From NCBI GenBank assembly GCA_028278605.1, contig JANQEB010000025.1:1-47150 (forward strand): a stretch of DNA of 47,150 bases, written 5' to 3'. Under the pieces are notes generated by a model. That model did no database searches. It was not told the origin of the DNA and saw only the letters and a program-made list of their open reading frames with translations. The translations under genes and the position numbers were made by a program. Positions 2,875 through 32,719 of this stretch are shown here, one piece after another (the first letter of the stretch is position 1; every line of letters starts with the position of its first letter). This stretch comes from Candidatus Gastranaerophilales bacterium (lineage in GTDB: Bacteria; Cyanobacteriota; Vampirovibrionia; Gastranaerophilales; UBA9971).

Positions 2875-3243
2875 ATGAAGAAAAAAGTAACTAAAGTTTT
2901 AAAGAAAAATCAAATGGGGCATCAAGGTGACGTGTTGTTAATCCCAGTTGATTCTATTCCAGAAGATTTAAAAAAATTAGAAAAACCAATTCTGGCTTAT
3001 GGAAAGATAACAGGTCATAAACATGAGATTCTTGATGATAAATCGGTTGAATATTATGAATCCGACGGCAAGGACCCTTTCGTAGTCGGTTGGATGAGGG
3101 TCATTGATAAAATAAATGCGAACCTTGTTCACGAAGACCATGAGGGAATTAATCTTCAGCATCAATTTTATCCAATTCGCAATCAGAATGAAATAGTTGT
3201 CAATGAAGAGGACGAAGAAATTTTTCAGCGGGTTATTGACTGA
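2875..3243 (+). CDS. Hypothetical phage protein
   Basis: AGGAGAAGG RBS. QGDVLLIPV...GHKHE pattern, which I recall from uncharacterised phage proteins. Confidence 0.5.
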   Translation: MKKKVTKVLKKNQMGHQGDVLLIPVDSIPEDLKKLEKPILAYGKITGHKHEILDDKSVEYYESDGKDPFVVGWMRVIDKINANLVHEDHEGINLQHQFYPIRNQNEIVVNEEDEEIFQRVID

Positions 3244-5363: not shown

Positions 5364-6302
5364 ATGTTTACGATTACAGTTTTATCAATTTTGACTTTAG
5401 TTTATATGGGATTTGCTTTTGCAGCATATCTTGTATACAAAAAGTCTAAAGGTGACAAAAAGATATTAGAAGACGGGCCTTTTTACCCAATGGCAATGAT
5501 AAGTCTTGGTTGTATGATCGTTGTGATATTTTGGACATTGATTGGATCAATTTACAGTATTGATGAGGGCGAAGGCGTGTTATTGACAGAGTTTGGGAAA
5601 ATTTATTCGACAGAGACAGAACCAGGCTTACACACAAAAAGGCCATGGGCATCTAAGATAGAATGGCCAATACGGTTGAGATCATTAAGTCAGACAATTG
5701 AAAGTCGTACAATTGATGACATGATATTAACGTTTGACATTCAATTGATGTGGGCGGTAGACCCAGAAAATCTAGAAAATGTCTATTCCAAGGTAGCTAA
5801 AGATTACACCACGCTTGAAACTGGTTTTCTGGTACCAATAGCTAGAGATTCTTTTAGAGATATTATCGGAAATAAGGCTTTTACTGATATAAACAGAAAG
5901 CGTGACCTAATATCAATTGAAATAACCGAATATGCTAGTGCAGCTCTAAAGCAAAAATACATTGTATTAGATTCAATCCAAATTAGAAAAATAATGGTAC
6001 CTGACTCTGTGAATGCTGCAATTGAAGAAAAGCAGAAAAAAGAGCAAGAATTGCAGGCTATGAAATATGAAGTTGATAAGCAAAAAGAAGCTGCTTTGGC
6101 CAGGATTGAAGAGGCCAAGGGCTTGGCAAAAGCACAGCGTATTATTAACTCCACTTTGACTCCAGCTTATTTGCAACACGAAGGAATTCAGATGTTAAAG
6201 AAGCTGTCTGACAGCCCGAACACTACGTTTATTATGGTGCCTACAGCGTCTAAAAGTTCAGGTGTGCCTATAATATTAAATGGGCAAGGCCCTTTGAAAT
6301 AG
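5364..6302 (+). CDS. SPFH/band-7 (prohibitin/HflC-like) membrane protein
   Basis: AAGGAG RBS. Two N-terminal TM helices, an SPFH-like core (GEGVLLTEFGKIY...PGLHTKRPW...), and a C-terminal coiled coil. Confidence 0.75.
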   Translation: MFTITVLSILTLVYMGFAFAAYLVYKKSKGDKKILEDGPFYPMAMISLGCMIVVIFWTLIGSIYSIDEGEGVLLTEFGKIYSTETEPGLHTKRPWASKIEWPIRLRSLSQTIESRTIDDMILTFDIQLMWAVDPENLENVYSKVAKDYTTLETGFLVPIARDSFRDIIGNKAFTDINRKRDLISIEITEYASAALKQKYIVLDSIQIRKIMVPDSVNAAIEEKQKKEQELQAMKYEVDKQKEAALARIEEAKGLAKAQRIINSTLTPAYLQHEGIQMLKKLSDSPNTTFIMVPTASKSSGVPIILNGQGPLK

Positions 6303-8218: not shown

Positions 8219-8752
8219 TTAATATTTTTTGTAGAAGTCTAGAAAACGTTGTTTGTTTTCTTCTGTTAACTCAGACTCTACAAAGGATTTAGAACCCATT
8301 ATACGGATTTCTGTTTTTTTTGATTCCCCGATTTCACGCAACAATTCTCTTTGTATGTCGTAGTATGCATATTCATAGACTTTGTTGCCAACCATATTCC
8401 TACTGTTGACAGATCCAGTCTCAGTCTTTAAGGCGTATGATTTTCCATCAACTAGTAGGTCCATGGATTCACCTGGTTTGATAAACATCCAATCAAGGTC
8501 TTCATAAACAACAAAAAAACTATAATCATTATGGTTGGTTGTTGTTACAATCTTCACTGCGTTTAGCTCCATTTTCCTAGCAGCTAGCCCAGCGCCTCTA
8601 GCCCAACTTTCACTTCCTGCAAAGTTAAGATAGTTGTTTTCCATAGCATATGAATGGGTACCTTTATACTTATCTTTGCTTTCTCTTACTGAATATGCAT
8701 TGCATCCTACTGCAATTAGCAGGATGCCCACCGTAAAAAATTTAATCATCAA
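8219..8752 (-). CDS. Putative lipoprotein (the only long minus-strand gene)
   Basis: AGGAGG RBS 6 nt upstream of ATG. Signal peptide with lipobox-like LIAVGC. Confidence 0.7.
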   Translation of the reverse strand: MMIKFFTVGILLIAVGCNAYSVRESKDKYKGTHSYAMENNYLNFAGSESWARGAGLAARKMELNAVKIVTTTNHNDYSFFVVYEDLDWMFIKPGESMDLLVDGKSYALKTETGSVNSRNMVGNKVYEYAYYDIQRELLREIGESKKTEIRIMGSKSFVESELTEENKQRFLDFYKKY

Positions 8753-8940: not shown

Positions 8941-8994
8941 AGCGAAGGATAAAAAAGTTAATGACATACTGGGACAAGTGTGTATATTAGATAT

Positions 8995-9894
8995 ATGGAA
9001 TTTAAATCATTACTAGAGTTACTCGCCTATTTTAAAGATGAGAGTGTTTGCAAGGAATATTTAGAACGGATGCGATGGGGTGGTACAATCCAATGTCCCC
9101 ATTGCGGTAATCACAAGATTTATAGGACGAATCGAGGTTTTAAATGTGCGGGGTGCTCTAAAAAGTTCTCGGTAACATCAGGCACTATTTTTGAAAATAC
9201 AAAACTACCATTGAAGACTTGGTTCGCAGCTATTTATTTATGCACTGCCCATAAGAAGGGTATCAGTTCAACGCAGCTTCACAGAGATTTAGGTATTAGC
9301 CAAAAAACAGCATGGTTTTTATTGCACAGGATACGACAAATAATGCAAGATGATTCTTCAATCGAAGGTATTGTAGAAGTGGATGAAACTTATGTCGGTG
9401 GCAATATGTTAAATAAGCCAAAGTCTCAAAGGATCAAAAACGCCCAGGGTCGCAGCCTTTCTCATAAGCAGCCGGTTGTGGGGATATTGGGCAGAGACAA
9501 TAAAGTTGTAGCTAAACCTATTCCAGATTCGACAGCGAAGACCTTGAAGCGGGAAATAGCATCCTACGTCAAATCAGGTTCTACGGTTATTACAGACTCC
9601 TGGAAGGGATATAAAAACTTAAACTTGATGTACGACCATCAAGTTGTCGATCACTCTAAAGATGAATTTGTCAAAGGCTCTTATCATATAAATTCTGTAG
9701 AAGGGTTCTTTTCAATGCTCAAAAGAGGTATTATAGGCATTTATCACGCAATTAGTAAAAAGCATTTACACAGATATTGTCATGAATTTTCTTATCGCTA
9801 CAATACCAGAGAAATCAAAGACTGTGAAAGATTCCAGGATGTGTTCTCAAATATCAAATGCAGGCTGACTTACAAGGGCTTGATTCATGAGTAA
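8995..9894 (+). CDS. IS1595-family (ISXO2-like) DDE transposase
   Basis: N-terminal zinc ribbon CPHCG...CAGCSKKFSVTSGTIFENTKLPLKTWF. DDE core VEVDETYVGG...ITDSWKGY...HINSVEGFFSMLKRG...HLHRYCHEFSYRYN. A GTG at 8980 is also possible as start. Confidence 0.9.
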   Translation: MEFKSLLELLAYFKDESVCKEYLERMRWGGTIQCPHCGNHKIYRTNRGFKCAGCSKKFSVTSGTIFENTKLPLKTWFAAIYLCTAHKKGISSTQLHRDLGISQKTAWFLLHRIRQIMQDDSSIEGIVEVDETYVGGNMLNKPKSQRIKNAQGRSLSHKQPVVGILGRDNKVVAKPIPDSTAKTLKREIASYVKSGSTVITDSWKGYKNLNLMYDHQVVDHSKDEFVKGSYHINSVEGFFSMLKRGIIGIYHAISKKHLHRYCHEFSYRYNTREIKDCERFQDVFSNIKCRLTYKGLIHE

Positions 9895-10015
9895 GAAGAA
9901 AAAGAAGATAAAAAAAGTCGAGCGACCGGATAAATATGAAGAAAAACTCAAGCTTGATATGTCTTTTGACGAAGCTATCAAAAAGATGATCAAAAAGAAA
10001 GTAAAGAAAAAATAA
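9887..10015 (+). CDS. Possible 42-aa lysine-rich peptide overlapping the transposase stop
   Basis: ATG 9887 overlaps the transposase 3' end. MSKKKKKIKKVERPDKYEEKLKLDMSFDEAIKKMIKKKVKKK. No clear RBS. Confidence 0.25.
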   Translation: MSKKKKKIKKVERPDKYEEKLKLDMSFDEAIKKMIKKKVKKK

Positions 10016-10037
10016 TTTTACTTTTATATATGTAAGT

Positions 10038-10063
10038 AAAATTAATAATGCCCCGTGAGGGGC
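10038..10063 (-). terminator. Rho-independent terminator of micro-ORF cassette 2
   Basis: On the minus strand, GCCCC-tcac-GGGGC followed by ATTATTAATTTT, 13 nt after the B2 stop. Confidence 0.55.
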
Positions 10064-10076
10064 GCCTTGACCCACC

Positions 10077-10139
10077 CTACCACCCATATGTCATGTTAGT
10101 GTTGGTGGGGTATTCTTGTGAAAAGAAACGATCCATCAT
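10077..10139 (-). CDS. Micro-ORF B2 (20 aa, MMDRFFSQEYPTNTNMTYGW)
   Basis: ATG lies 9 nt downstream of GGAGG within AAAGGAGGTAA. Homologous to B1. Confidence 0.45.
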   Translation of the reverse strand: MMDRFFSQEYPTNTNMTYGW

Positions 10140-10192
10140 TGGGCATTACCTCCTTTTGTTTTGGATTTCCTCTGCTACCACAGGGAAGTTTC

Positions 10193-10276
10193 TTAACCCG
10201 CCCTTCCGCCCACTGCCATCTTAGGCATAAATGAAAAATTCTTGTTTGCATTGGGTGCAAATTTTTCAACAGCCAT
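10193..10276 (-). CDS. Micro-ORF A2 (27 aa, MAVEKFAPNANKNFSFMPKMAVGGRAG)
   Basis: ATG lies 8 nt downstream of GGAGG within AAAGGAGGTAA. Conserved leader and hairpin upstream. Confidence 0.5.
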   Translation of the reverse strand: MAVEKFAPNANKNFSFMPKMAVGGRAG

Positions 10277-10283
10277 TGGCGTT

Positions 10284-10333
10284 ACCTCCTTTTTAAATTA
10301 TTTGAGACATAATGCAAAGGGGAGGTGTTTTTT
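10284..10333 (-). promoter_or_regulatory. Second copy of the Shine-Dalgarno-pairing / terminator-like hairpin
   Basis: ACCTCC (10284-10289) pairs with GGAGGT (10321-10326). T6 at 10328-10333. By hand alignment, 63 of 73 leader positions match copy 1. Confidence 0.5.
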
Positions 10334-10417
10334 AAAGCCTTATATATTTTACAAAATTTATAACCTGTCCCATCTAGTCTATAGTCGCCAACTCGACACA
10401 CTGTCGTACATTTTTGG

Positions 10418-10443
10418 TTGACAATCTAATTCAGTGTTATAAT
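10418..10443 (+). promoter_or_regulatory. Extended -10 promoter of the long rightward operon
   Basis: TGtTATAAT (10435-10443). TTGACA at 10418-10423 is only 14 nt upstream. Palindrome CGACAcacTGTCG lies just upstream. Confidence 0.55.
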
Positions 10444-10457
10444 GTCGCCCATACTTT

Positions 10458-10619
10458 ATGGAAAAGAAAATTAAAACTAAACGGATACATATTAGGATCC
10501 CAGAGGATTTACTAGTTGACCTGCAGAAGATTGCGAAAATCAAGAAACTTAAAGTGTCAACATTGGCGCGATTTTATCTTGACCGAGGAGTCCTCGAAGA
10601 CTTAACCCGCCATTCATGA
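10458..10619 (+). CDS. Ribbon-helix-helix (CopG/Arc-like) DNA-binding protein, 53 aa
   Basis: Not in the ORF track (<60 aa). MEKKIKTKRIHIRIPEDLLVDLQKIAKIKKLKVSTLARFYLDRGV shows a beta-strand plus two-helix RHH pattern. First gene after the promoter. Confidence 0.6.
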   Translation: MEKKIKTKRIHIRIPEDLLVDLQKIAKIKKLKVSTLARFYLDRGVLEDLTRHS

Positions 10620-10768
10620 TAAAGATATTAGATTTTATTAATGATTTAAGAAGCTTTGTTACTGAAGAATGGGTAATAATAGTTGTCGTTTGTTTATTGA
10701 TTGCGATATATTATACTGCATATTTAAAAGCGAAACCGAAGATTCACAATGAAGAAGACGGAGGTTGA
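10616..10768 (+). CDS. Small single-pass membrane protein, 50 aa
   Basis: ATGA overlap with the RHH stop. TM segment WVIIVVVCLLIAIYYTAYL. Confidence 0.45.
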   Translation: MIKILDFINDLRSFVTEEWVIIVVVCLLIAIYYTAYLKAKPKIHNEEDGG

Positions 10769-11242: not shown

Positions 11243-11701
11243 TTGGATACAGAATTTGAAAGGTTTGATCACTTCCTAAATTTGATAGGGGTTAATAAGA
11301 GGGTTTTGTCTGTGATGATAGGGAAAAACATCACCTATGTTTCCAAGGTACACAAAAACAGGTCTGAACTTCCTAGCTCAATCGTTTCATTCTTAGAGGA
11401 AAGATATTCTTTAAATAGACAATGGCTTACCCATGGCATTGGGCAACCTCTTATCGTGAAAGATCAAACATTGTCTCAGAAAATAGTCCTATGTTTCAAG
11501 TGCACTAATCGGATTTTCTCAAATTTGCTTGTAGTTAGAGGTAATAACTATCATGAGTATTGCTATATTGGTAAGAGGTGTGCATATTGCCGCGAAGTGG
11601 GACCGGTTTATCAGAAAAATTTATGTAAAAAATGCCTAATGTCCAGACTATCAGAAGTTAGGAATATTATGAACGAATCGCACGCATTGGCTACAAGATG
11701 A
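11243..11701 (+). CDS. Phage CI-repressor-like HTH protein with a Cys-rich C-terminus
   Basis: TTG start 7 nt after TAGGAG. HTH segment KRVLSVMIGKNITYVSKVHKN ending in the NRQWLTHGIG signature. Four CxxC-type pairs at the C-terminus. Confidence 0.55.
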   Translation: MDTEFERFDHFLNLIGVNKRVLSVMIGKNITYVSKVHKNRSELPSSIVSFLEERYSLNRQWLTHGIGQPLIVKDQTLSQKIVLCFKCTNRIFSNLLVVRGNNYHEYCYIGKRCAYCREVGPVYQKNLCKKCLMSRLSEVRNIMNESHALATR

Positions 11702-12576
11702 ATATTGTTGAAAAGATAGAATACTATTTGTATCGTTTACGGTGGTGGTTGGGATTCAGAACACACCTTGATATTGAGTTGAACAATGACTGTAATCATA
11801 GGTGCGTGATGTGTTGGTGGGGTGCCCCAGGTGGGCCAGGTTTTGAAAAAGGTCAAATGAAACTTGCACAGGCTGTTAGGTATTTAATTGAAGGCCGAAT
11901 TCATGGTTATGTGTCAGTAAAGTGCAACTTTAGAGGTGAGCCCACCTTGTATAAAGACTTGGTTCATTTTGTTAAGAAGGCTAAGAATTTGGGTTATACA
12001 GATATAATGATGAACTCAAATGGAGTCTTAATGAAAGATAAGTTTGCATCTCTCAGAGATGCGGGGTTAACAACCATAATAATATCTTTGGGTGCGATAG
12101 ACAAGGACGCTTACTCTAAATTGCACAAGGTTAAAGACAAGCATTACTACAGGCTACATGAATCATTAGAATACATGCACGAAAACCAAGGCAATGTCAA
12201 AGTCAAATTAAATTGCCATGAATCAAAAACTAGTGATTTTGACTATTTTTGGATAAAGAGAAAATATCCTAATTTTTTTATAGTTAAACGGCATTTAATG
12301 GAGAGAGAAGGCGAAGACTTGTCTATTCCGATGATTAGAGAAAGAAAAAAGATGTGTCCCCATCTCAAAAGGAGAATGCTAATTACGCAAAACGGGAAGT
12401 TTTATCCATGTTGCATGGCGTATAATGAACCAGATGATATATTGCTTGGCTACAATTTTGAGGATGCTTTAAAGAATAGGAAACAATTAATTAAGGCGTA
12501 TAGAGAAGGTATACTCCTTCCATCATGTGTGAAATGCCCAAGCCAGGATGTATACAAGGTGAAGGTTTCAATATGA
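11698..12576 (+). CDS. Radical SAM enzyme with a SPASM/twitch-like C-terminal domain
   Basis: CNHRCVMC matches CX3CX2C. C-terminus CPHLKRRMLITQNGKFYPC matches CX12GX4C, followed by CVKC. Confidence 0.8.
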   Translation: MNIVEKIEYYLYRLRWWLGFRTHLDIELNNDCNHRCVMCWWGAPGGPGFEKGQMKLAQAVRYLIEGRIHGYVSVKCNFRGEPTLYKDLVHFVKKAKNLGYTDIMMNSNGVLMKDKFASLRDAGLTTIIISLGAIDKDAYSKLHKVKDKHYYRLHESLEYMHENQGNVKVKLNCHESKTSDFDYFWIKRKYPNFFIVKRHLMEREGEDLSIPMIRERKKMCPHLKRRMLITQNGKFYPCCMAYNEPDDILLGYNFEDALKNRKQLIKAYREGILLPSCVKCPSQDVYKVKVSI

Positions 12577-13874
12577 AAACTGCTGTCATTATATGTGTTA
12601 GGTCTGGGAGTAATCGTATTGAAAACAAATTGCTCGCCACTGTGAAGAGTGGTGACTTCCTTCGCTTAACTCTAGAAGAATGTATAGAGAGGGTCTCTGG
12701 CTTTGATGTAATATTAGCCATCCCGGAAGGTGATCCAATACAAGATGCCTTAATTGGGAATTCTAATATTTATGATATATTTACTGGGAATCCAAGCTCG
12801 CCATTGCATAGAATGTGGTACGCGGCCATCGCTAATAGTGTAGATACTATAATAAGGGTTACTGCTGATGATATCTTTGTAGACAGTGAATTGCTTAGAA
12901 AGCAACTAGCTTACCACCATAAGCAGAATAACGATTACACGTATATGGGGAATTGCCCCCAGGGGGTGGCTGCTGAAATAATATCTTTCAAGGCTCTTGA
13001 TAAAATAGCAACTGAGCATGATGAGCCAATTGAATTTACGTCTTATTATTTAAAAAAACCAGGATTTAAGTATAGTGAATATGTTCCACCTAAAGAATAT
13101 CAGCACCGGTTTAGACTTGAGCTGGATTATCCAGAGGACTTAACCCTAATTAGGGTTATTTATTCTTTACTTGGCGATAATTTCGGGACTCTGGATATAA
13201 TAAATTTACTTAAAAGGCACCCTGAGTTAATCGATATTAATAGACTGCCATTGATAACGTTTTACACATGCAACAAGAACTATGGTAAATACATAAGAGA
13301 GTGCATCTTATCAGTAGTTAGCCAGGGTTTGTTTGATCATTCTGAGTACATAATCTTGGATGATAAATCAACCGATGATAGTACGGCTGTAATACTTGAA
13401 ACGATTTCAGGGCTGCCAGAACATCAAAAGTCTCGGATTAGGGTATACAGAAACCCTGAGAACCTGGGCCTTTCTCAGTCTTCAAACAAGTGCCTACATC
13501 TAGCTAAAGGTAGATATGTAATGAGAGTTGATTCTGATGATTACTTACTTCCTGGCGCTGCCAATAGGATGTTAATTAATTTGAAACATGATTTTGGGGG
13601 CATAGTTTCGGGTTACACAAGGGATGGAATGGAATGCAAAGAAAAGCACCTTCATTCAGGATGCGCATTGCTTGAAAAGAGGCTGGCTTTAGAATTGCAG
13701 TATAAAGAAAACCCAGGTTACGGCGCAGCATTTATGAAAAGATTTGAAGAGAAATATAAGGTCGGGTTTATTGAAGAACCTTTATGGCATTATAGAAAAC
13801 ATGCAAATTCAATAAAGGCAAAAAACGGTGACATGACTATGACATCATTAAACCCAGCGGAGGCAGGAAAGTGA
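12573..13874 (+). CDS. Fusion of a cytidylyltransferase (NeuA/SpsF/KdsB-like) with a family-2 glycosyltransferase
   Basis: ATGA overlap start. N-terminus AVIICVRSGSNRIENK...IIRVTADDIFVD. C-terminus ITFYTCNKNYGKYI...ILDDKSTDDS...RVDSDD (DXD). Confidence 0.75.
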   Translation: MKTAVIICVRSGSNRIENKLLATVKSGDFLRLTLEECIERVSGFDVILAIPEGDPIQDALIGNSNIYDIFTGNPSSPLHRMWYAAIANSVDTIIRVTADDIFVDSELLRKQLAYHHKQNNDYTYMGNCPQGVAAEIISFKALDKIATEHDEPIEFTSYYLKKPGFKYSEYVPPKEYQHRFRLELDYPEDLTLIRVIYSLLGDNFGTLDIINLLKRHPELIDINRLPLITFYTCNKNYGKYIRECILSVVSQGLFDHSEYIILDDKSTDDSTAVILETISGLPEHQKSRIRVYRNPENLGLSQSSNKCLHLAKGRYVMRVDSDDYLLPGAANRMLINLKHDFGGIVSGYTRDGMECKEKHLHSGCALLEKRLALELQYKENPGYGAAFMKRFEEKYKVGFIEEPLWHYRKHANSIKAKNGDMTMTSLNPAEAGK

Positions 13875-14731
13875 AAGTAATGATAACAGGAAGTGAAGGA
13901 TTTGTGGGTAAGGCACTCAAACAAAGACTCAAGTCTTTAGACCACGAGGTTATTGATTTTGATTGGAAGGTCTACAGAAATGATTTAGTTGAAGATGTGA
14001 ATATACTAAGCTATAAAATTGGAGAGTCTGGCATGGTTATTCACTCAGCAGCTATAGCAGATTTGAATATTGTAGAAAAGGACCAGGATCAAGCATTCCA
14101 CACTAATGTAGAAGGGACTTATAATGTTGTGAAGTATTGCAGAATGCACGAAAAACCAATGATTTATATTTCAACATGCTGTGTCTATGGGGATGCGCAT
14201 AAAAATAATTATATTGTTCATGAGGGGACAAACCCCGAGCCTATAGAATTTTACGCACGCACAAAATACGCAGCAGAGCCAATTGTCCAAGAGCTAGACA
14301 GGCATGTAATATGTCGGTTAGGGACAGTTTACGGACCAGGAATGAGGCCCGCACTTTTTAACTATAAAATATTGGACTGTGCTTTGAATAATAAAGAATT
14401 TGTAATTAATGGTGATGGGCATCATTCAAGGTTTTATATTTTTATAGACGATTTAGTTGATGCGCTTGTTTCCACAATAACCAAGTTTCCGAATAAAGAA
14501 ATTTTAAATTTGTGCGGAGAAGAGAAAGTCTCTTTGAATAAAGTTTTATCAATAGTGTCAGAAATAACAGGTAAGGATTTAAAATATACACATGGTCCAG
14601 CTAGGCACTTAGGCGATGTAGATGAAAACATGAATAATATAAAAACACAAGAGTTAATTGATTGGATCCCTAAAACCTCATACAAAGAAGGCATGATTAA
14701 AACGAAGGAGCACTTTTGGCCCAATCTGTAA
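13871..14731 (+). CDS. NAD-dependent sugar epimerase/dehydratase (extended SDR)
   Basis: GSEGFVG Rossmann motif and YARTK (YxxxK) catalytic motif. Confidence 0.8.
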   Translation: MKVMITGSEGFVGKALKQRLKSLDHEVIDFDWKVYRNDLVEDVNILSYKIGESGMVIHSAAIADLNIVEKDQDQAFHTNVEGTYNVVKYCRMHEKPMIYISTCCVYGDAHKNNYIVHEGTNPEPIEFYARTKYAAEPIVQELDRHVICRLGTVYGPGMRPALFNYKILDCALNNKEFVINGDGHHSRFYIFIDDLVDALVSTITKFPNKEILNLCGEEKVSLNKVLSIVSEITGKDLKYTHGPARHLGDVDENMNNIKTQELIDWIPKTSYKEGMIKTKEHFWPNL

Positions 14732-14994
14732 TTACAACTAATCTTGAGGATTTTGAAAAGAAGTTGCTTTCTATTCAGATACCCAATCTCTTAAGACTAA
14801 TTGAGGGCATCGCTAAGTTAGTTAGAACGGCTAGTTTAGATAAGAGCTTGCCGGATGAATGCATATTGGACTTGCTTAGGAAGGAAACAAAGATAACTGC
14901 AGAACTAATGAGGCGAGGTTATTTAAAAAAAGAAGAATACCAGCAATTTGAGGCATGGCGTAAGGGACTTGGATATAAGAAGAGGTTTTATTGA
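14716..14994 (+). CDS. Hypothetical protein
   Basis: TTG start 7 nt after GAAGGAG. Lies within the sugar operon. Confidence 0.4.
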   Translation: MAQSVITTNLEDFEKKLLSIQIPNLLRLIEGIAKLVRTASLDKSLPDECILDLLRKETKITAELMRRGYLKKEEYQQFEAWRKGLGYKKRFY

Positions 14995-15701
14995 TGTATA
15001 TCGCTGGGAACTGTCTAATGAATCCAGGGGAAGAGGATCATGTCTTCAACACAGCCAAGGAGCTTAAAGGGTTTATTGATATTTTTAGAGTTAAACTATG
15101 GGGTGGAGGCACTAAGCTAGACAGATACTATCCTGGTATCGGTGAAGACGGGATTAAAACTTTGTATCGCATAAACAAGGAATTACATATTCCTGTGATT
15201 ACAGAAGTTCACACCCCTCAGCAGGTCAAACTTTGCTCTGGACTTGTAGGGGTTTGGATAGGTGCTAGGAATTCAATGAACTACTCATTGCTTGAGTCCA
15301 GCAAGATAATGAGAAATGTATTCATAAAAAGGATGCCGAACATGACAATTGCACAGGTGATAGATATGTATAATATCATGTTAAATAAGCATGGTGTCGT
15401 TCCTTGGATGATTGAACGAGGTATAGATACTAACGATAAAGATTATGGTAGATGGACGCCAGACATTAAGATTGCAATGGTTTTAAAAAGGCATTTCCCA
15501 GAAATGTTTAGTCGATTTGTGGTCGATTGTTCACATTCAGCAGGCCAAAAGGATTTTGTAAAAGATGTCTACAAGGCGTTTAGGGCAATCGGTGTTAGGA
15601 ACTTTATGTTCGAATGTACTTATAATGGGATAAGTAAAACTGACCAGACGCACATGTTGTCGGTATCAGAATTTAAAGAGATAACAAAAGAAGCAAGCTA
15701 G
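14994..15701 (+). CDS. 3-deoxy-ulosonate-phosphate synthase (DAHP synthase type I-beta / KDO8P synthase family)
   Basis: IGARNSMNYSLLE, FIKRMPNMTI, MIERGIDT and VVDCSHSAG correspond to the family signatures IGARNMQNF, KRG, CERGIRT and DPSHA. Confidence 0.7.
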   Translation: MYIAGNCLMNPGEEDHVFNTAKELKGFIDIFRVKLWGGGTKLDRYYPGIGEDGIKTLYRINKELHIPVITEVHTPQQVKLCSGLVGVWIGARNSMNYSLLESSKIMRNVFIKRMPNMTIAQVIDMYNIMLNKHGVVPWMIERGIDTNDKDYGRWTPDIKIAMVLKRHFPEMFSRFVVDCSHSAGQKDFVKDVYKAFRAIGVRNFMFECTYNGISKTDQTHMLSVSEFKEITKEAS

Positions 15702-15710
15702 GAGTTTAAG

Positions 15711-17102
15711 ATGAGAGAACCTATAAAATGTTCAATATGTGATTCAGAAGATTGGCATAATTTAGATAATTTGAGAGACCCGAAATATTGGTATAACCAA
15801 AATATGATTGAACTTCATAATGATTACAAGACTGACCCTGGTCAATTTGATGTTGATGTCAGGGATGGCAAGGTTAGGTTTAACCCGATTGGGTTCAAGG
15901 TATGTAAATCTTGTGGCTATTTAACATATGATTACCCTGAAAATATCGAAGATCAATACGATAAGCAGAGAGACTTTATCAGGGTAATGAATATTGTAAC
16001 AAATAATAGAAAAATAAGAAAGCATGAAAAATTCTTAAAAGAGATTTTTGATGAATTGTCGCCGTCTCAGAATGGCAGAGGATTTTCGTCGAAAGTCTTA
16101 GATGTCGGGTGCGCCCAAGGTACTTTTTTAAAGTACATAAAAGATCGTTGCAATTTGGATAATAGCAATGTCTTTGGAACAGAGTTTTCAAGCGCAGCCA
16201 GAGAATTCGGGAAAAATTACTATGGTCTAAATATAGTCAAAGATATCTCTCAGGTAGATAAATCCGAAAGATTTGATCTAATTTCATATTATCATGTTAT
16301 CGAACATGTGGAGCATCCAGATAGGGAACTTTTGAGAATTAGAAATTATCTAAAAAAAGATGGTTATTTATACATGTCTATACCTCATTGGTGTGAAAGA
16401 CTGGAAGAGGCTAGCGGTGCTATTTGTGACTCATTTGAAAATCTTTACCACTTGAACCATATAAATTGTTTTACATTTCATTCATTCGAGAACCTCATAA
16501 AGAAGTGCGGATTTGAAATCGTTAAATCTGATGACCAGATGTATGGCTATACTGTTTTATGCAAGATGGTCGATATCCCTGAAAAATTTAAGCCTATCCA
16601 GGAAAATTACAAGGAGATTATCAAAAGCCTAAAATCCCAAAAAGAAGCTATCAACATGTTCGTTCAAAAGAAATATGATGAAGCGCTAAAAGTTTACAAG
16701 AATTTTCCAGATGCTTACATTATGAAGTCTATCGATCAAAGGAATAATAAAAGCTTCGAAATGCAAGACCAAATATTAGTAGAAGGGTTGAAGAATTGCA
16801 GAGACTCTCTTAAAATAAGAGAACAGAGGGCAGCTATAAGAATGCAATGGGACGGAAATGTCGAGGGAGAATTTGGGGTTTACACAAATAGAGTCAAAGA
16901 GGCTGAACACATACTCACGGCTTTATTAGAAGAGCATCCCTCAGAACAATATTATTTCTCCTTAGCTGTAATTGAAGGCAAATACAAAAAAGACTACGGG
17001 AAGGCCATTAAGTACTTAGAGGAAGTTATTGAAATCAACCCCATGAGAATAGGCGAATGCATGAATATGGTTGGTCAATTTTATAGCAGGGGGACGACAT
17101 GA
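15711..17102 (+). CDS. Class I SAM-dependent methyltransferase with an N-terminal zinc ribbon and a TPR-like C-terminus
   Basis: AGGAG RBS. Motif I VLDVGCAQGTF. CSIC...CKSCG. Helical-repeat C-terminal third. Confidence 0.7.
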   Translation: MREPIKCSICDSEDWHNLDNLRDPKYWYNQNMIELHNDYKTDPGQFDVDVRDGKVRFNPIGFKVCKSCGYLTYDYPENIEDQYDKQRDFIRVMNIVTNNRKIRKHEKFLKEIFDELSPSQNGRGFSSKVLDVGCAQGTFLKYIKDRCNLDNSNVFGTEFSSAAREFGKNYYGLNIVKDISQVDKSERFDLISYYHVIEHVEHPDRELLRIRNYLKKDGYLYMSIPHWCERLEEASGAICDSFENLYHLNHINCFTFHSFENLIKKCGFEIVKSDDQMYGYTVLCKMVDIPEKFKPIQENYKEIIKSLKSQKEAINMFVQKKYDEALKVYKNFPDAYIMKSIDQRNNKSFEMQDQILVEGLKNCRDSLKIREQRAAIRMQWDGNVEGEFGVYTNRVKEAEHILTALLEEHPSEQYYFSLAVIEGKYKKDYGKAIKYLEEVIEINPMRIGECMNMVGQFYSRGTT

Positions 17103-29620: not shown

Positions 29621-29997
29621 TAGAGGTTAGAGGAGTGAAAGAAGCTGTGGACCGGATAGAAAAAATATCCAGATTTGAAAATCTTAACATGGGCGTAGTA
29701 GCTGCAAAAATGCATAAAGATGTTATGGAGCACTTTAAGGCAGAGCAAGGCCCGGAAGGTAGCTGGGAACCAATAGAGAGAACTGGTAAAATTCTACAAG
29801 ACACAGGGCGCCTTCGGGCTTCTATCAAGAAAACAAGCAAAAAGCATGAAGCACAGGTCGCCACTAATGTAATATATGCAGCAACGCATAATTTTGGGGA
29901 TGACAAAAGAAACATAAAAAAAAGGGAGTTTATGTATTTATCAGACAAGTCTATAGAGGATATTATTAAATATTTAGAGGGTAGGTCAGATAAATGA
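29617..29997 (+). CDS. Virion morphogenesis / tail completion protein (Mu gpG-like)
   Basis: ATGA overlap. GSWEPIERTGKILQDTGRLRASI...NVIYAATHNFGD signature. Confidence 0.6.
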   Translation: MIEVRGVKEAVDRIEKISRFENLNMGVVAAKMHKDVMEHFKAEQGPEGSWEPIERTGKILQDTGRLRASIKKTSKKHEAQVATNVIYAATHNFGDDKRNIKKREFMYLSDKSIEDIIKYLEGRSDK

Positions 29998-30491
29998 AAA
30001 TTGATTCTTTAACATCTTCCCTTGTTTCATTGATGGAATCAAATAATACTATAACTTCAGGAGGTTTAAGTAATGGTCTATTAGATAATAAGAAAATAAC
30101 AACATTTCACAAAGGCATTGAGAACACGCATGTTGACTACCCCATCCCTAAGACTCTTTTCCCGTATGTATTTGTCGAGGCTGTTGAATCAGAGTACCAG
30201 TTTAATCAGCTTGGTGTCAATTCTAGCAGAGATATAGATATTCTATGGGATATAGTGGGCTGTACAATGTATGGTCAAGGTTCTGGGACTGGAAAGGTGG
30301 CAAGAGAAAATGCAGACACTCAAGCGTTAAAACTTGCGGGAAACATTGAAGACTTTGTGGCAAATAATATTAGACTTGGTGGTATAGTACAATGGTGCTT
30401 TGTCAGAAGGTCTGAATATAATGTCCGATCTAAGGACAATACGTATCAAACAACAACTAAGGTTAGAATTGAGGCTAGGAGAAAAACATGA
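29994..30491 (+). CDS. Neck/tail-terminator-position hypothetical protein
   Basis: ATGA overlap. The call rests on position only. Confidence 0.4.
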   Translation: MKIDSLTSSLVSLMESNNTITSGGLSNGLLDNKKITTFHKGIENTHVDYPIPKTLFPYVFVEAVESEYQFNQLGVNSSRDIDILWDIVGCTMYGQGSGTGKVARENADTQALKLAGNIEDFVANNIRLGGIVQWCFVRRSEYNVRSKDNTYQTTTKVRIEARRKT

Positions 30492-31498
30492 TTTTATCAG
30501 AAGAAGAAGTTTTACAACAATCGCGCACAGCTTTTAAACAGTGGGAAGATTTATGGCGTACAAATTGTACAAAAAATGCAGAGATTATTAAATCGGGAAG
30601 AGCTATACCGCTCAGGAGTATAGCTTATTCCGGAATGGGAAAAACTGTAGTCTGTACGGCTATGGGGGCATCATTTCAAGATGATATCCATATTATTAAA
30701 AAATATCGAGGTAAAAGAGATTTTGATATTATAGCAGTCGATAAGTCTGCTATGCATTTACAAGATCATGGCATTAAGCCTGATTATGTGATTATAGCAG
30801 ATGCGTCTATTGGGTATAAGTGGATAGACGGGTATGACTCTACAGGTGTCACACTTTTGGCTAATGTAAACTCAAATCCAGAATGGGCTCTGAACTGGAA
30901 GGGCCCAATTGCCTATTTTGTGAATAAAGACAATATAGAGTCTGAAAAGATTTTCATGGAAATAAGCGGATGCAGAGAGCAGATTGCAGCAGCTTCCAAT
31001 GTCGGTAACGCTGCGGTGGTTGTGGCTACGTCTGTATTTGACTATGAAACTGTATTGCTATCGGGTTATGATTTTTCTTGGAATAAAAGATATTACGCTT
31101 TTTCTAAGTTCGATGCTGCTGAGAAACGTTCGTATATGTCTCACATGATATCTATTAATCACATGGGCGAAGTAGTGAATACCTCAAATAATCTACACTT
31201 TAGTTGTAGGTGGCTATCTGATTTCCTGAAAGTGGCCAAGAAAAATGTATTTATAGGCAATAAAAAGACGACTCTAAATGCTCCTTTTTTAGATCTTGAG
31301 AGACAATTGGCTATTTCCAGATGTAGACCTTTATCTAAGAGAGAAGTCGAGCATATTATTGAAAAGACTAAATTGGTGGCGATAGCTCCAAATGTCGCGG
31401 AACTTCAAAAGTTGCATGACGAAAATCCAAAAACGATGCTCAATAAGTATGTCGTTGAATTAATACCGGAGGAAATATGCGAAAGATTAAATTTGTAG
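30488..31498 (+). CDS. Maf / DUF115 (MptE-like) family protein; putative nonulosonic/ulosonic-acid glycosyltransferase
   Basis: VVCTAMGASF...FDIIAVDKSAMHLQDHGIKPDYVIIADAS...NVGNAAVVVATSVFDYETVLLSGYDFSW matches the GPSL / D..L...gI.PD / G.Df layout of the motility-accessory-factor domain. Confidence 0.6.
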   Translation: MILSEEEVLQQSRTAFKQWEDLWRTNCTKNAEIIKSGRAIPLRSIAYSGMGKTVVCTAMGASFQDDIHIIKKYRGKRDFDIIAVDKSAMHLQDHGIKPDYVIIADASIGYKWIDGYDSTGVTLLANVNSNPEWALNWKGPIAYFVNKDNIESEKIFMEISGCREQIAAASNVGNAAVVVATSVFDYETVLLSGYDFSWNKRYYAFSKFDAAEKRSYMSHMISINHMGEVVNTSNNLHFSCRWLSDFLKVAKKNVFIGNKKTTLNAPFLDLERQLAISRCRPLSKREVEHIIEKTKLVAIAPNVAELQKLHDENPKTMLNKYVVELIPEEICERLNL

Positions 31499-31698
31499 AT
31501 AAGAGACCTTTAAGGTTTCCTAAGTTAACTTACTACCCTAATGGGTGTGTCCCGAAGGTGGGGGATATTTTAACAGTCACAGACAATGAAGCAAAGAAAT
31601 TATTAGCTAAAAAAAATGGTACTGTTCCTATGTTTGAAGAGGTGAAGGCCTCTAGAATTAGGAAAGAAGACCCAGTTCAGGAGGTAGACAATGGCTAA
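31477..31698 (+). CDS. Hypothetical protein
   Basis: GGAGGAAATATG start. Overlaps the 3' end of the Maf-like gene. Confidence 0.45.
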   Translation: MRKIKFVDKRPLRFPKLTYYPNGCVPKVGDILTVTDNEAKKLLAKKNGTVPMFEEVKASRIRKEDPVQEVDNG

Positions 31699-32719
31699 AG
31701 GTGATAACGCAAGGTTAGGGTATCAGTCTAGTGTAGGCTTGGCCGAAGAAACGACATTCGGCACAAAGGTTGATTCTTTCGATTATCTAGAGTTCATATC
31801 AGAATCTTTTAAGGTCGATAGAGAGTCTAGGAAGCTTGAAAGTATCAACACTGGGCGAAGTTTCATTAAAAGAGTTCAGTTAAATGAGACTGTCGAAGGT
31901 AGCCTAGAGGCCGAATTTAATCCAGCTTCAGACTTTGCAATCAAACTTATGAAGCAAGCCTTTGGGGGTACTGTTACAAGTGCGACACAAGCCTCTTCAG
32001 ATATCCTGCATACAATCAATGTTGGGGACATGGAATCGAATGCAGGCACATCTACTTCAAGCGATGTGAAAAGTTTAACATTCCAGGCAGATAAAGGCGG
32101 GACAGTTTATGATTATGTAGGCTGTCGAGTTAACTCTTTTACCCTTAAAGCCGAAGTCGGCGGAATGGTTATGATGACTGCAGAGGTAATCGGTAAGTCT
32201 GGATCACTTTCTTCAAGTACACCAACGGCTGTATTTTCTGACATTATACCTGCTGATTATTTAGGTGTAACTTTTGCTTTAGGTGACTCTTTAGGCAATG
32301 TTTCCGCTGAGACGGTACAGTCTTTTGAGTTTTCTATCAACAATAACCTTGATGGAGAACAAAGGGGCCTTGGCTCAAGAAGTCGAAACATAATCCCACC
32401 TGTACGTCGAGAGGTTTCTTTGAAAGTGACACAAAGAGCTGATACGACCACAAATTACAGTCAATTTCTTGCTGAGACAATATCTGCCATTAAGATAACA
32501 ATGGATACTACACAAACCATTACATCAAGCACTGGTTCAGAGACATACCAGTGTCAATTAGAGTTCCCCAGATGCTATACCAAAGGTCCAGCACAGCCGG
32601 AGGTTGGTGACGCGGGTGTTCTAAGTTATGACATTGAATATGAACCTATATCTGATAACACGACCACTGCATACGATGTAAGGGCTTTAGTGTATAACGC
32701 AACAGCAAACTATTTCTAA
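31691..32719 (+). CDS. Major tail (tube) protein
   Basis: GGAGG RBS. 342 aa. Immediately upstream of the chaperone pair and tape measure. Ser/Thr-rich loops. Confidence 0.55.
   Translation: MAKGDNARLGYQSSVGLAEETTFGTKVDSFDYLEFISESFKVDRESRKLESINTGRSFIKRVQLNETVEGSLEAEFNPASDFAIKLMKQAFGGTVTSATQASSDILHTINVGDMESNAGTSTSSDVKSLTFQADKGGTVYDYVGCRVNSFTLKAEVGGMVMMTAEVIGKSGSLSSSTPTAVFSDIIPADYLGVTFALGDSLGNVSAETVQSFEFSINNNLDGEQRGLGSRSRNIIPPVRREVSLKVTQRADTTTNYSQFLAETISAIKITMDTTQTITSSTGSETYQCQLEFPRCYTKGPAQPEVGDAGVLSYDIEYEPISDNTTTAYDVRALVYNATANYF

Follow-up and report, generated by a model that had tools for sequence, protein, structure and literature searches.

A predicted ulosonic-acid cassette and a Maf-like gene in the genome of an uncultivated phage

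The phage genome analyzed here carries a cassette of six ORFs, all at 11698-17102, and, within its tail operon, a gene encoding a Maf-like protein. Together they may constitute one system, resembling a flagellin-glycosylation island turned on the virion, with the tail tube as presumed acceptor; this proposal is given an even chance of being correct. The functional unit would then reach past 11698-17102, to 30488-31498. Virion decoration with a CMP-activated acidic sugar would be of a kind without earlier description for phages.

The cassette and its enzymes

The first 99 nt of the window (the whole stretch analyzed, 47,150 nucleotides) are identical to its last 99 nt, so that the assembly is circular and complete, at 47,051 bp. 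The cassette takes up 5405 of the 47150 bases (11.5%, close to the ~11% of a first-pass annotation) and its genes lie exactly where that annotation had placed them, but there are six genes instead of the seven it counted (Table 1). The overlap coupling that it described is borne out at the base level by the junctions, which are, in order, ATGA, ATGA, GTGA, a 16-nt overlap, TGATG, a 9-nt spacer with GGAG, and ATGA: the six genes are translationally coupled. To note, the product of 11243-11701 looks like a helix-turn-helix protein at its N-terminus but has no family match, and could still be a regulator, as could other small ORFs without a family, such as 8219-8752 on the minus strand.

Table 1. 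Genes of the cassette, the Maf-like gene and the candidate acceptor gene
Feature	Coordinates	Strand	Basis of assignment
Radical SAM enzyme (SPASM/twitch-like)	11698..12576	+	Pfam, conserved Cys, AF2/Foldseek
SpsF/KdsB-type cytidylyltransferase-GT2 fusion	12573..13874	+	Pfam, invariant motifs, profile vs PDB
Short extended SDR	13871..14731	+	Pfam Epimerase, PHROG 540, conserved motifs
92-aa helical protein, no family	14716..14994	+	Homologues in all cassettes
DAHPS/KDO8PS-family PEP aldolase, metal-dependent type (putative synthase)	14994..15701	+	Pfam DAHP_synth_1, family profile, ligand residues
Class I SAM methyltransferase with zinc ribbon and TPR region	15711..17102	+	Pfam Methyltransf_23
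Maf-like protein, outside the cassette coordinates	30488..31498	+	Pfam PF01973, profile vs PDB
Tail tube protein, candidate acceptor	31691..32719	+	Phage_tube_2 (assigned), PHROG 290

The aldolase matches Pfam DAHP_synth_1 (71.3 bits, 8e-20), and its family profile favors DAHPS type I-beta (7e-37) over KDO8PS (6e-9). The signatures IGARN, KR, ERGI and D.SH, already read from the sequence in the first-pass annotation, are invariant in 28 relatives. All four metal ligands are kept and invariant (C7, H181, E207 and D217, aligned with C31, H201, E227 and D238 of P. furiosus DAHPS), as are four of the five PEP ligands (R32, R92, K112 and R142, hence the Arg/Arg/Lys/Arg set), residues on which that annotation had made its reading depend. 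Its “DAHPS-type” label holds for the family but not for the enzyme, which has been rebuilt: in place of the aldose-phosphate loop KPRT stands K-x-x-GGGT, itself invariant, together with a new invariant K34, and KPR, including the catalytic Lys position, is gone. The Lys of KPRT is considered catalytically important in this family, and the activity is therefore only putative. This loop replacement sets the protein apart from normal DAHP synthases and from Kdo8P synthases alike; it is proposed to be the synthase of a non-canonical 3-deoxy-2-ulosonic acid.

The fusion protein combines a cytidylyltransferase (~aa 1-222; CTP_transf_3, 34.6 bits) with a GT2 domain of GT-A type (~aa 225-433; Glycos_transf_2, 87.9 bits). 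The R-x-x-S-x-R-x-x-x-K nucleotide-binding motif is kept, with R10, S13, R15 and K19 invariant, and so are the DD/DSDD motifs. Against the PDB, the profile of the cytidylyltransferase domain retrieves 6OEW (6e-31), then KdsB (~1e-11); among named proteins KdsB and SpsF are closest to it, all 15 members scanned match NCBIfam KdsB models and 3 match PseF. In B. subtilis, SpsF is proposed to activate legionaminic acid to its CMP form (PMC7439481). More than 100 clusters of such fusions were found, all on short or phage-size (up to ~60 kb) metagenomic or MAG contigs.

The radical SAM enzyme (Radical_SAM, 55.5 bits, 9.9e-15) keeps CNHRCVMC and its C-terminal Cys in relatives. The SPASM score lies just under the cut-off (21.2 vs 21.5 bits), and the C-terminal Cys-rich region reads as a SPASM/twitch-like auxiliary-cluster region. 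Foldseek searches with the AF2 model (pLDDT 83) place MoaA, BlsE (TMq 0.67, the best TM-score match), SuiB and viperin with CTP at the top, CteB and SkfB being neighbors as well. A cytidylyltransferase-radical SAM fusion exists in spirochaetes. The SDR (Epimerase, 111 bits, 6e-32; PHROG 540, 7e-52) keeps GxxGxxG and YxxxK in relatives, with UDP-GlcA 4-epimerase 6ZL6 and GalE 4ZRM as best PDB matches. It was not detected near the cassette in loci L014/L015 and L020/L021, and is proposed to provide an accessory tailoring step, as an epimerase, dehydratase or reductase.

The methyltransferase (Methyltransf_23, 70.1 bits, 2e-19) bears an N-terminal CxxC...CxxC zinc ribbon, whose Cys pairs are kept along with the DxGxxxG motif, and its gene always adjoins the aldolase gene in relatives. 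Residues 403-461 are matched by designed TPR proteins, but all TPR matches stay under the Pfam cut-offs; of the domain calls made earlier, the enzymatic ones pass the Pfam gathering scores while the TPR tail does not. The 92-aa protein, for which no Pfam or PDB relative was found, has homologues in all cassettes, where its gene without exception immediately precedes the aldolase gene, to which it is coupled; R55 and R67 are its only two invariant Arg.

Distribution of the cassette

The gene order is repeated in ~20 independent metagenomic phage contigs at protein identities of 30-55%, an arrangement far beyond chance. The terminase and portal genes usually follow just downstream; in one locus (L008) the cassette lies between them. 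With ~20 phage contigs sharing this order, mostly by terminase and portal genes, neither a stray metabolic insert nor the unrelated metabolic fragments that the first-pass annotation had allowed for can account for the cassette. Among 185,579 species genomes, the aldolase family occurs on only 3 contigs, in 2 MAGs. In deposited phages, neither DNA resembling the cassette nor a relative of the Maf-like protein was found, and the aldolase and GT2 have only distant matches there (24-41% identity). Outside the metagenomic phage contigs, in cellular genomes and deposited phages alike, the cassette is essentially missing. Its carriers keep the domains and the catalytic motifs intact; they are proposed to form one clade of siphovirus-like phages, uncultivated, with head genes of Mu type and genome sizes of ~41-47 kb, in which the system is a core trait.

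The Maf-like protein, the proposed pathway and its rivals

The Maf-like protein matches PF01973 (Maf_flag10; 1.6e-19, 70.7 bits vs a cut-off of 34.6) over model positions 4-170 of 171. It corresponds to the central domain only; the domains that flank it in flagellar Maf, at the N- and the C-terminus, are missing, and its predicted structure (pLDDT 33.6) is too low in confidence for use. The profile of its relatives retrieves Maf 5MU5 as best PDB match (5.9e-18), MptE (6.7e-14) and Cst-II (~0.05); that PF01973 also includes the pterin kinase MptE counts against a transferase. The Maf family is known as protein O-glycosyltransferases with flagellin as natural substrate (10.1101/2020.06.03.131540), and the phage protein is proposed to be the CMP-ulosonate:protein O-glycosyltransferase. 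Coupling between its gene and that of the tail tube runs via a 73-aa ORF. The order MCP, Maf-like gene, tube is kept in 29 viral loci, to the extent that each one spans the region (28 include the tube gene and 28 the MCP gene), and in 28 of the 29 the tube gene lies ~1.2 kb downstream from where the Maf-like gene starts; the Maf-like gene and the cassette share a contig in all nine contigs covering both regions. Phage_tube_2 is matched by one gene of the scanned set (2e-36), presumably ORF 31691..32719, which also matches PHROG 290, “minor tail protein”. Ser+Thr make up 21.9% of the tube protein (proteome mean, 13.1%), a richness common to most structural proteins that does not single it out.

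The pathway would start with the aldolase condensing PEP with a host aldehyde to a 3-deoxy-2-ulosonic acid. This aldehyde would be neither erythrose-4-P nor arabinose-5-P, because the loop is rebuilt and no phosphatase or isomerase gene accompanies the aldolase. The SpsF/KdsB-type domain, whose motif is intact, would activate the acid, its presumed substrate, as a CMP-sugar, which the radical SAM enzyme and the methyltransferase would then tailor, joined by the SDR wherever the cassette has one. The spirochaete fusion and the nucleotide-binding structural neighbors suggest that the radical SAM enzyme works on the CMP-linked form. Finally, Ser/Thr of a virion protein would receive the acid from its CMP carrier through the Maf-like enzyme, and the fused GT2 would add another sugar, drawn from a nucleotide sugar of the host. 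GT2 enzymes usually use NDP-sugar donors, which leaves the fusion to a cytidylyltransferase without explanation and counts against the proposed system. The core logic noted in the first-pass annotation, an ulosonate synthase beside a CMP-type nucleotidyltransferase, agrees with the kept ligands and motif and with the co-occurring Maf-like transferase. That annotation held the target not to be deducible; genomic position and the Maf analogy now point to virion proteins, with the acceptor itself still presumptive. The candidate is the tube protein, encoded in translational coupling with the Maf-like gene; the capsid or another structural protein could take its place.

The glycan might instead be meant for a host target, either the envelope (LPS, capsule, S-layer) or host flagellin, serving superinfection exclusion or receptor masking in the manner of classical seroconversion modules and prophage-borne nonulosonic-acid tailoring genes. 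Flagellin is the natural Maf substrate, and phage kdsA/kdsB and many glycosyltransferase genes have been interpreted as host cell-wall modifiers (PMC12801897). This is nevertheless unlikely: no integrase or other lysogeny gene was recognized among the ORFs of the complete genome scanned by Pfam or PHROGs, although the few small family-less ORFs noted above could include a regulator, the enzymes come without a membrane-anchoring or flippase partner, the cassette lies by the packaging genes as a fixed core trait with the Maf-like gene inside the tail operon, and the Maf-like protein lacks the C-terminal domain that in Maf resembles flagellin and its export chaperone FliS (PMC11339370). DNA hypermodification, with a GT-A enzyme placing the sugar acid on a base much as phage clusters attach hexose, heptose or Kdo to 5-hydroxymethylcytosine (5hmC), is improbable. 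The cassette does adjoin the terminase genes, a Dam methylase (L011) or C5-methylase fragment (L020) lies directly upstream in related phages, and phage GT-A/GT-B enzymes glycosylate 5hmC, with one product assigned as Kdo and one cluster including a cytidylyltransferase (10.1101/2023.12.21.572611). Yet this complete genome lacks any C5-methyltransferase, TET/5mYOX, thymidylate-synthase homologue, DNA polymerase or gene of nucleotide metabolism, the Maf family is known for acting on proteins, and the cassette methyltransferase is of the small-molecule/protein type (Methyltransf_23), not a DNA methylase.

A free, CMP-handled nucleoside-type molecule, or a RiPP-like product made by the radical SAM/SPASM enzyme on the 92-aa protein, appears quite improbable. 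SPASM-type enzymes are typical peptide maturases, with SuiB, CteB and SkfB among the structural neighbors here; BlsE, the best TM-score match, acts on a cytosine sugar-acid nucleoside; the GT2 domain has a weak SunS-type match; and every cassette keeps the 92-aa protein. The latter, however, has no leader/core or Cys/Ser/Thr-rich pattern and only its two invariant Arg, an aldolase with a CMP-transferase is not RiPP logic, and the Maf-like transferase and GT2 favor a macromolecular acceptor. Hardly credible is an ordinary auxiliary DAHP synthase boosting aromatic amino-acid synthesis amid unrelated neighbors. Source databases name the relatives “3-deoxy-7-phosphoheptulonate synthase” and DAHPS models top the NCBIfam matches, but far under their cut-offs (90 vs 335 bits); moreover, the E4P-phosphate loop KPRT is lost, synteny with five other enzymes is fixed, and a true aro-operon DAHPS (L023) differs in motif and context.

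Comparison with known systems

As proposed here, phage-encoded glycosyltransferases decorate the phage's own structural proteins in mycobacteriophages, reportedly (Freeman and colleagues in 2023) by ordinary glycosyltransferases with host nucleotide sugars. A sugar-acid synthase, CMP activation, a radical SAM or a Maf-type enzyme is not known to take part there. The sps legionaminic-acid pathway of B. subtilis likewise unites an SpsF-type cytidylyltransferase and a GT2 (SpsA) in one locus, but its enzymes are unfused, its synthase (SpsE) is NeuB-type, and it has no radical SAM or Maf. It places an acidic sugar on a proteinaceous surface, that of the spore (PMC7439481).

DNA sugar-hypermodification clusters (Pyle et al., 10.1101/2023.12.21.572611) also combine GT-A enzymes with sugar-activating partners near packaging genes, besides the Kdo-assigned product and cytidylyltransferase, but need a C5-methyltransferase with TET, or a thymidylate-synthase homologue, none of which this complete genome has. 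The Kdo pathway, including kdsA/kdsB of cyanophage S-SCSM2R (PMC12801897), pairs a PEP aldolase of the same superfamily with a KdsB-related CMP-transferase. The phage aldolase, however, has no KANRS or KPRT loop and no KdsC or KdsD genes beside it, its profile scores DAHPS I-beta 28 orders of magnitude better than KDO8PS, the cytidylyltransferase is of the SpsF/6OEW branch and GT2-fused, and radical SAM, methyltransferase-TPR and Maf-like partners are added.

Maf enzymes transfer from CMP-Pse, CMP-Leg and CMP-Neu5Ac and, besides such CMP-nonulosonic acids, from CMP-Kdo to Ser/Thr of flagellin, and maf adjoins flagellin genes (10.1101/2020.06.03.131540; PMC11339370). The Maf flagellin islands of Campylobacter, Helicobacter, Aeromonas, Clostridium, Geobacillus and Magnetospirillum have a NeuB-type synthase where the phage cassette has a DAHPS/KDO8PS-type one; the phage system has no aminotransferase, acetyltransferase or UDP-sugar hydrolase genes, its Maf-like protein is half the usual size and central domain only, its carrier is a phage, and the neighboring gene encodes a tail tube, not flagellin. 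Both nonetheless comprise an ulosonic-acid synthase (putative in the phage), a CMP-activating cytidylyltransferase and methyltransferases among the tailoring enzymes, and in both the Maf_flag10 transferase gene adjoins that of a helical-polymer subunit.

Genome layout and the six-gene cassette

Positions 1-99 of the window are identical to 47052-47150, indicating a circularly closed metagenomic assembly and a complete phage genome of 47,051 unique bp; statements on the absence of genes thus hold for the whole genome. Nearly all genes lie on the + strand. The early and replication genes, as annotated with Pfam and PHROG, encode a DnaD-like protein, a DnaB-like helicase, an SPFH protein and an IS1595-type transposase. 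Packaging and head genes comprise the large terminase, a Mu-type portal fused to MuF, the head protease and the major capsid protein; tail and lysis genes, the tail tube protein, the tape measure protein and an M15 endolysin; recombination genes, an Mgm101-type annealase and a PDDEXK exonuclease. Neither a DNA polymerase, a nucleotide-metabolism gene nor a tRNA gene was found in the complete genome, and no integrase was recognised in it. No Rfam family reaches its gathering score within the window, and promoter and terminator scanning between 9.8 and 21.5 kb returned counts equal to the shuffled expectation.

Features of the window and of related metagenomic loci
Sequence	Position	Strand	Product or content
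Window	3243-4502 and 5364-6302	+	DUF6745 protein and SPFH/Band_7 protein, early region
Window	8980-9894	+	IS1595-family DDE transposase (zinc ribbon and DDE_Tnp_IS1595)
Window	9894-10765		870 bp after the transposase gene
Window	11698-12576		radical SAM protein
Window	12573-13874		cytidylyltransferase (CT)-GT2 fusion
Window	13871-14731		SDR
Window	14716-14994		92-aa protein
Window	14994-15701		aldolase
Window	15711-17102		methyltransferase with TPR tail
Window	24778-26145	+	455-aa protein adjoining the portal gene
Window	29994-30491		head-tail part of the morphogenesis block
Window	30488-31498	+	Maf-like protein
Window	31691-32719	+	tail tube protein
Window	43680-44453 and 45003-45890	+	recombination pair: Mgm101/Rad52-type single-strand annealing protein and PDDEXK (DUF3799, exonuclease VIII-like) nuclease
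L001	545-1456		counterpart of the transposase
L003	1805-3374		distant relative: shorter radical SAM/SPASM protein, and a stand-alone CTP_transf_3 protein besides CT-GT2
L011	5528-6409		Dam-type D12 class DNA methyltransferase
L020	4750-5361		C5-cytosine methylase fragment

The first-pass annotation had described seven overlap-coupled genes at 11698-17102. ORF calls give six, and the coupling stands for ATGA, ATGA, GTGA, 16-nt and TGATG overlaps, one junction being a 9-nt spacer with a GGAG ribosome-binding site. All the domains that it had named are borne out by Pfam, and the cassette is a conserved coupled set of intact enzymes.

Several features of the early region, upstream of the cassette, deserve mention. 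The transposase shares 62% amino-acid identity with its counterpart in the related locus L001, while its closest plasmid-borne relatives (Bacteroides, Entomospira) reach only 46%; it may be domesticated rather than a passing insertion sequence. The segment that follows contains only short ORFs (53-59 aa, both strands) with no Rfam match and may be a regulatory or origin region. The DUF6745 protein (42% identity in L001) and the SPFH protein have no obvious role.

The rebuilt aldolase and its partner enzymes

The aldolase is a DAHP_synth_1 (PF00793) TIM-barrel, with 71.3 bits for a Pfam cut-off of 25.5. Its family profile matches the DAHPS structures 1ZCO and 4C1K at 7e-37, as compared to only ~6e-9 for the KDO8PS structures of the PDB. 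In an alignment of 28 relatives (36-54% identity), residues C7, R32, K34, G38, G39, E71, W88, G90, R92, N93, K112, R113, R142, D178, S180, H181, E207 and D217 are invariant. The family was compared with P. furiosus DAHPS and three canonical sequences from retrieved loci: C7, H181, E207 and D217 align to the metal ligands C31, H201, E227 and D238 (1ZCO numbering), and R32, R92, K112 and R142 to the PEP ligands Arg55, the GARN Arg, Lys136 and Arg166, as these residues function in the DAHPS family. Loss of the PEP- or metal-binding residues had been named in the first-pass annotation as what would speak against a synthase; the eight listed here are invariant in the 28 sequences, and the PEP and metal site is present in the rebuilt aldolase.

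The rebuilding concerns the substrate loop. In the DAHPS/KDO8PS family this loop (KPRT or KANRS) carries the catalytic Lys and binds the phosphate of the aldose substrate, the E4P phosphate being held via Arg/Thr in DAHPS. The canonical LRGGAFKPRT is replaced in the phage aldolases by FR(C/V)K(L/I)WGGGT, or FR[CV]K[LIV][WFY]GGGT across the family: KPRT is aligned to GGGT, so that Lys-Pro-Arg becomes Gly-Gly-Gly with the Thr kept, and a new invariant Lys (K34) is found three residues upstream of GGGT. The KANRS loop of Kdo8P synthase is not present either. The best NCBIfam DAHPS score is 90.3 bits for a cut-off of 335, and the KdsA models yield 34 and 31 bits for cut-offs of 242 and 314. No aro genes lie near the aldolase, and a KdsC/KdsD-type partner (phosphatase/sugar isomerase) is absent from both cassette and genome. 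Judged from its sequence, the aldolase belongs to neither DAHP synthase nor Kdo8P synthase as named enzymes, and the loop change, together with the absence of phosphatase and isomerase genes, suggests that it uses a different, perhaps unphosphorylated, aldehyde. A presumed cellular counterpart, locus L023 from a Pseudomonadales MAG, encodes a DAHPS with the canonical KPRT, within an aro operon that also contains pheA, tyrA and an aminotransferase gene, and was kept as outgroup and contrast only; another locus, L024, was set aside as irrelevant.

Type I-beta DAHPS often has an N-terminal chorismate-mutase-like regulatory domain. The 92-aa protein encoded upstream of the aldolase was considered as a split-off version of this domain and rejected: none of 15 family members matches a Pfam model even with E allowed to reach 1, and PDB matches are never better than E = 0.6. 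No relatives of this protein are detectable outside the clade.

The CT domain of the fusion protein scores 34.6 bits with CTP_transf_3 (Pfam cut-off 22.6). The residues R10, S13, R15 and K19 of its N-terminal R..S.R...K are invariant in 15 relatives and form the CTP-binding motif, as in KdsB and NeuA. Its profile best matches an uncharacterised cytidylyltransferase, 6OEW, over the full length (6e-31), followed by more than 12 KdsB structures at ~1e-11. KdsB models of NCBIfam match 15 of the 15 members and PseF models three of them, all with scores far below the cut-offs; by sequence the domain is of the CMP-ulosonate-synthetase type, with no equivalog-level assignment to KdsB, PseF or NeuA. 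Relatives of the fusion are named SpsF by JGI, SpsF being the proposed CMP-legionaminic-acid activation step in B. subtilis (PMC7439481). The GT2 domain, a GT-A domain, reaches 87.9 bits with Glycos_transf_2 (cut-off 23.3) and conserves ILDD and DSDD. The second, stand-alone CTP_transf_3 protein of the distant locus L003 suggests the formation of two CMP-activated intermediates in some lineages.

The radical SAM protein displays the CX3CX2C motif as CNHRCVMC and five invariant C-terminal cysteines (C220, C238, C239, C277, C280). A SPASM domain falls 0.3 bit under the cut-off in the window protein and is not so flagged in its relatives. No named NCBIfam equivalog is reached: MoaA models give 73 bits for 325, viperin 51 for 180. 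The nearest structures to its AlphaFold model (pLDDT 83) are MoaA, BlsE, SuiB, viperin with CTP, EpeE, BtrN, DesII and anSME, mostly enzymes acting on nucleotides, nucleoside sugars or peptides; as judged from the model, the likeness to MoaA and viperin is at fold level only. The homologue search returned only eight close relatives, none of them cellular. To note, the NCBIfam model TIGR04321 ("spiro-SPASM"), in which a spirochaete CTase-like N-terminal domain is joined to a radical SAM/SPASM domain, has a match in each of the two, separately encoded, phage proteins (11698-13238). This fusion may be a Rosetta-stone hint that the radical SAM and CT domains share one CMP-linked substrate. No mention of TIGR04321 was found in the literature searched.

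Of the two remaining enzymes, the SDR is a short nucleotide-sugar epimerase-type protein with GxxGxxG and YxxxK, and the methyltransferase consists of an N-terminal double-CxxC ribbon, a Methyltransf_23 core and the TPR tail. In the flagellin glycosyltransferase FlmG, a TPR domain binds flagellin; by this analogy, the TPR tail weakly fits a protein-directed step.

Occurrence of the cassette and the Maf-like gene of the tail operon

Contigs of ENA, JGI, Logan and IMG/VR supplied the gene contexts of the cassette. In a 5.8-billion-protein collection the aldolase has 86 relatives, all of ~235 aa and many on 41-47 kb contigs, while the CT-GT2 fusion has more than 100, all of ~430-460 aa, beyond which scores drop sharply to generic GT2. 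The order radical SAM, CT-GT2, SDR, small protein, aldolase, methyltransferase-TPR is kept down to ~30% identity; the SDR is not constant, and four loci show none in the vicinity of the cassette, while the small protein is present in every context. The genes for the small and the large terminase usually follow directly on the cassette, and in the related locus L008 the cassette lies between terminase and portal. In two other loci, L011 and L020, a DNA methylase gene or gene fragment just upstream of the cassette has no equivalent in the window.

Among 185,579 species, each represented by one genome, the phage-type aldolase occurs only on three short contigs from two MAGs (PVC-group, Phycisphaerae). 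The cassette is present on each of these contigs, which probably represent phage DNA binned with the MAGs. None of the 50,697 deposited phages contains DNA similar to the cassette, and at protein level they match the aldolase and CT-GT2 only remotely, at 24-41% identity. In the search for the host, no tRNA genes and no near DNA match among phages or plasmids were found, and the portal protein has remote matches only.

A search for enzymes that modify bases among the other ORFs of the genome found none, but it brought up a further candidate enzyme outside the cassette. This protein matches PF01973 (Maf_flag10, DUF115, now "MptE-like"), the signature domain of Maf proteins, with 70.7 bits for a cut-off of 34.6 and the whole model covered. 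Maf proteins O-glycosylate Ser/Thr of flagellin from CMP-pseudaminic, CMP-legionaminic, CMP-N-acetylneuraminic acid and even CMP-Kdo, and their genes adjoin flagellin genes (10.1101/2020.06.03.131540; PMC11339370). Flagellar Maf proteins of about 600-660 aa assemble an N-terminal Rossmann-like, a central and a C-terminal helical domain (PMC11339370). This three-domain architecture is not present in the phage protein, which is 336 aa long (335-363 aa in relatives) and aligns with the central domain alone (5MU5 residues 255-508). An exhaustive search gathered 337 related representatives: ~40 close ones of 330-360 aa, and distant ones of 580-660 aa in which the matching domain is central, as in true Maf. 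Deposited phages contain no relative.

The best PDB match of a profile of 42 Maf-like sequences is the Maf structure 5MU5 (5.9e-18), as compared to 6.7e-14, over a shorter stretch, for the archaeal kinase MptE (8SD5); the sialyltransferases Cst-II and Lst are matched weakly. The single-sequence AF2 model is unusable (pLDDT 33.6), and the distinction between Maf and MptE thus rests on profile scores and context.

The Maf-like gene, a Maf-type domain within the tail operon, overlaps the preceding head-tail gene by ATGA, and a 73-aa ORF links it to the tail tube gene. Within the stretch that each covers, 29 viral loci share the order capsid, Maf-like, tube (tube in 28, capsid in 28), and the Maf-like gene is directly upstream of the tube gene in 28 of the 29. 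Co-occurrence with the cassette is strict: both are found on nine of the nine contigs covering both regions, namely the window and eight IMG/VR contigs, one of which lacks the SDR. For this count, loci L056 and L059 were extended by exact DNA patterns, and L057 and L058 are too short to decide.

Ser/Thr content was tried as a marker of the acceptor. The tail tube protein contains 21.9% Ser+Thr for a proteome mean of 13.1%, but such richness is common to most structural proteins and does not discriminate. The highest value of the proteome (26.6%) belongs to the 455-aa protein encoded beside the portal gene, which has no Pfam or PHROG match and is kept at 40% identity in L001/L002, between terminase and portal there; this protein may be a further glycosylation acceptor or else serve as a decoration protein.

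A putative virion glycosylation pathway and its relation to known systems

Beyond the domain and residue assignments, we infer the following route. The aldolase would condense PEP with a host aldehyde into a 3-deoxy-2-ulosonic acid, which the CT domain would convert to its CMP ester. The radical SAM enzyme, the methyltransferase and, where present, the SDR would tailor the sugar acid, probably in its CMP-linked form, as suggested by the match of TIGR04321 to both phage proteins and by the nucleotide-binding structural neighbours of the radical SAM protein. The Maf-like enzyme would then move the acid onto a virion protein, at Ser/Thr, and a further sugar would be added by the fused GT2. That a CMP-activated ulosonic acid is made is probable; whether the virion is its target is evenly balanced. 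The tail tube is the favoured acceptor since its gene is coupled to the Maf-like gene, as maf neighbours flagellin, and since tail tube protein and flagellin both form helical polymers, yet taken as the specific target it remains doubtful. The reading as a whole, in which a clade of environmental phages decorates its own particles, most probably at the tail tube, with a new CMP-activated 3-deoxy-ulosonic acid by means of a neofunctionalised aldolase with a Gly-rich loop and a minimal Maf-type transferase, is put forward as a tentative possibility.

The closest competitor keeps the chemistry and changes the target to the host envelope or host flagellin, as Maf function would allow. It seems unlikely, as the genome has no recognisable lysogeny or membrane components, the cassette has core status, the Maf-like gene sits in the tail operon, and its product lacks the extra domains of flagellar Maf. 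DNA hypermodification has a precedent in phage glycosyltransferases that put sugars, one assigned as Kdo, on 5hmC (10.1101/2023.12.21.572611). It is nonetheless quite improbable here, since no enzyme generating 5hmC or 5hmU (C5-methyltransferase with 5mYOX/TET, or a ThyS homologue) is found when every ORF of the complete genome is scanned with Pfam and PHROG. The SPASM enzyme and the small protein would fit a free metabolite or RiPP-like product, but the aldolase, the CTase and two transferases do not, leaving this option very little credit. An ordinary aromatic-pathway DAHP synthase, finally, is at odds with loop, scores and synteny alike, and is scarcely tenable; virome surveys that count this gene among the auxiliary metabolic genes for aromatic amino acids are probably mistaken.

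Virion glycosylation is so far known mainly from mycobacteriophages, where it is phage-encoded, and from giant viruses. Viral kdsA/kdsB genes have been described in a cyanophage (PMC12801897), and the literature searched yielded no account of phage particles decorated with ulosonic acids or of phages with enzymes of the Maf type. Should virion glycosylation by this route hold, a virus would for the first time be seen to have a "sialylation-like" system of protein glycosylation, with phages carrying complete, self-contained pathways for acidic "sialic-acid-like" sugars and a flagellin-type O-glycosyltransferase turned on phage particles, that is, a new chemistry and enzyme family for virion glycosylation. 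The DAHPS/KDO8PS superfamily would gain a third substrate class and a phage-specific branch with intact PEP/metal chemistry and a rebuilt substrate loop, a testable case of enzyme neofunctionalisation, possibly towards a new ulosonic acid. Glyco-engineering, in which Maf is already explored, could likewise profit from a compact Maf-domain enzyme whose neighbouring acceptor is defined. The chances that the system yields a sugar and an enzyme specificity not known before are substantial.

Compared with the flagellin glycosylation island and the Kdo pathway, the phage system would work alike but is a member of neither. Its synthase is of the DAHPS family with a rebuilt substrate loop, in place of a NeuB-type one, and it is further set apart by its clade-specific CTase-GT2 fusion, its minimal Maf-domain protein and its viral carrier.
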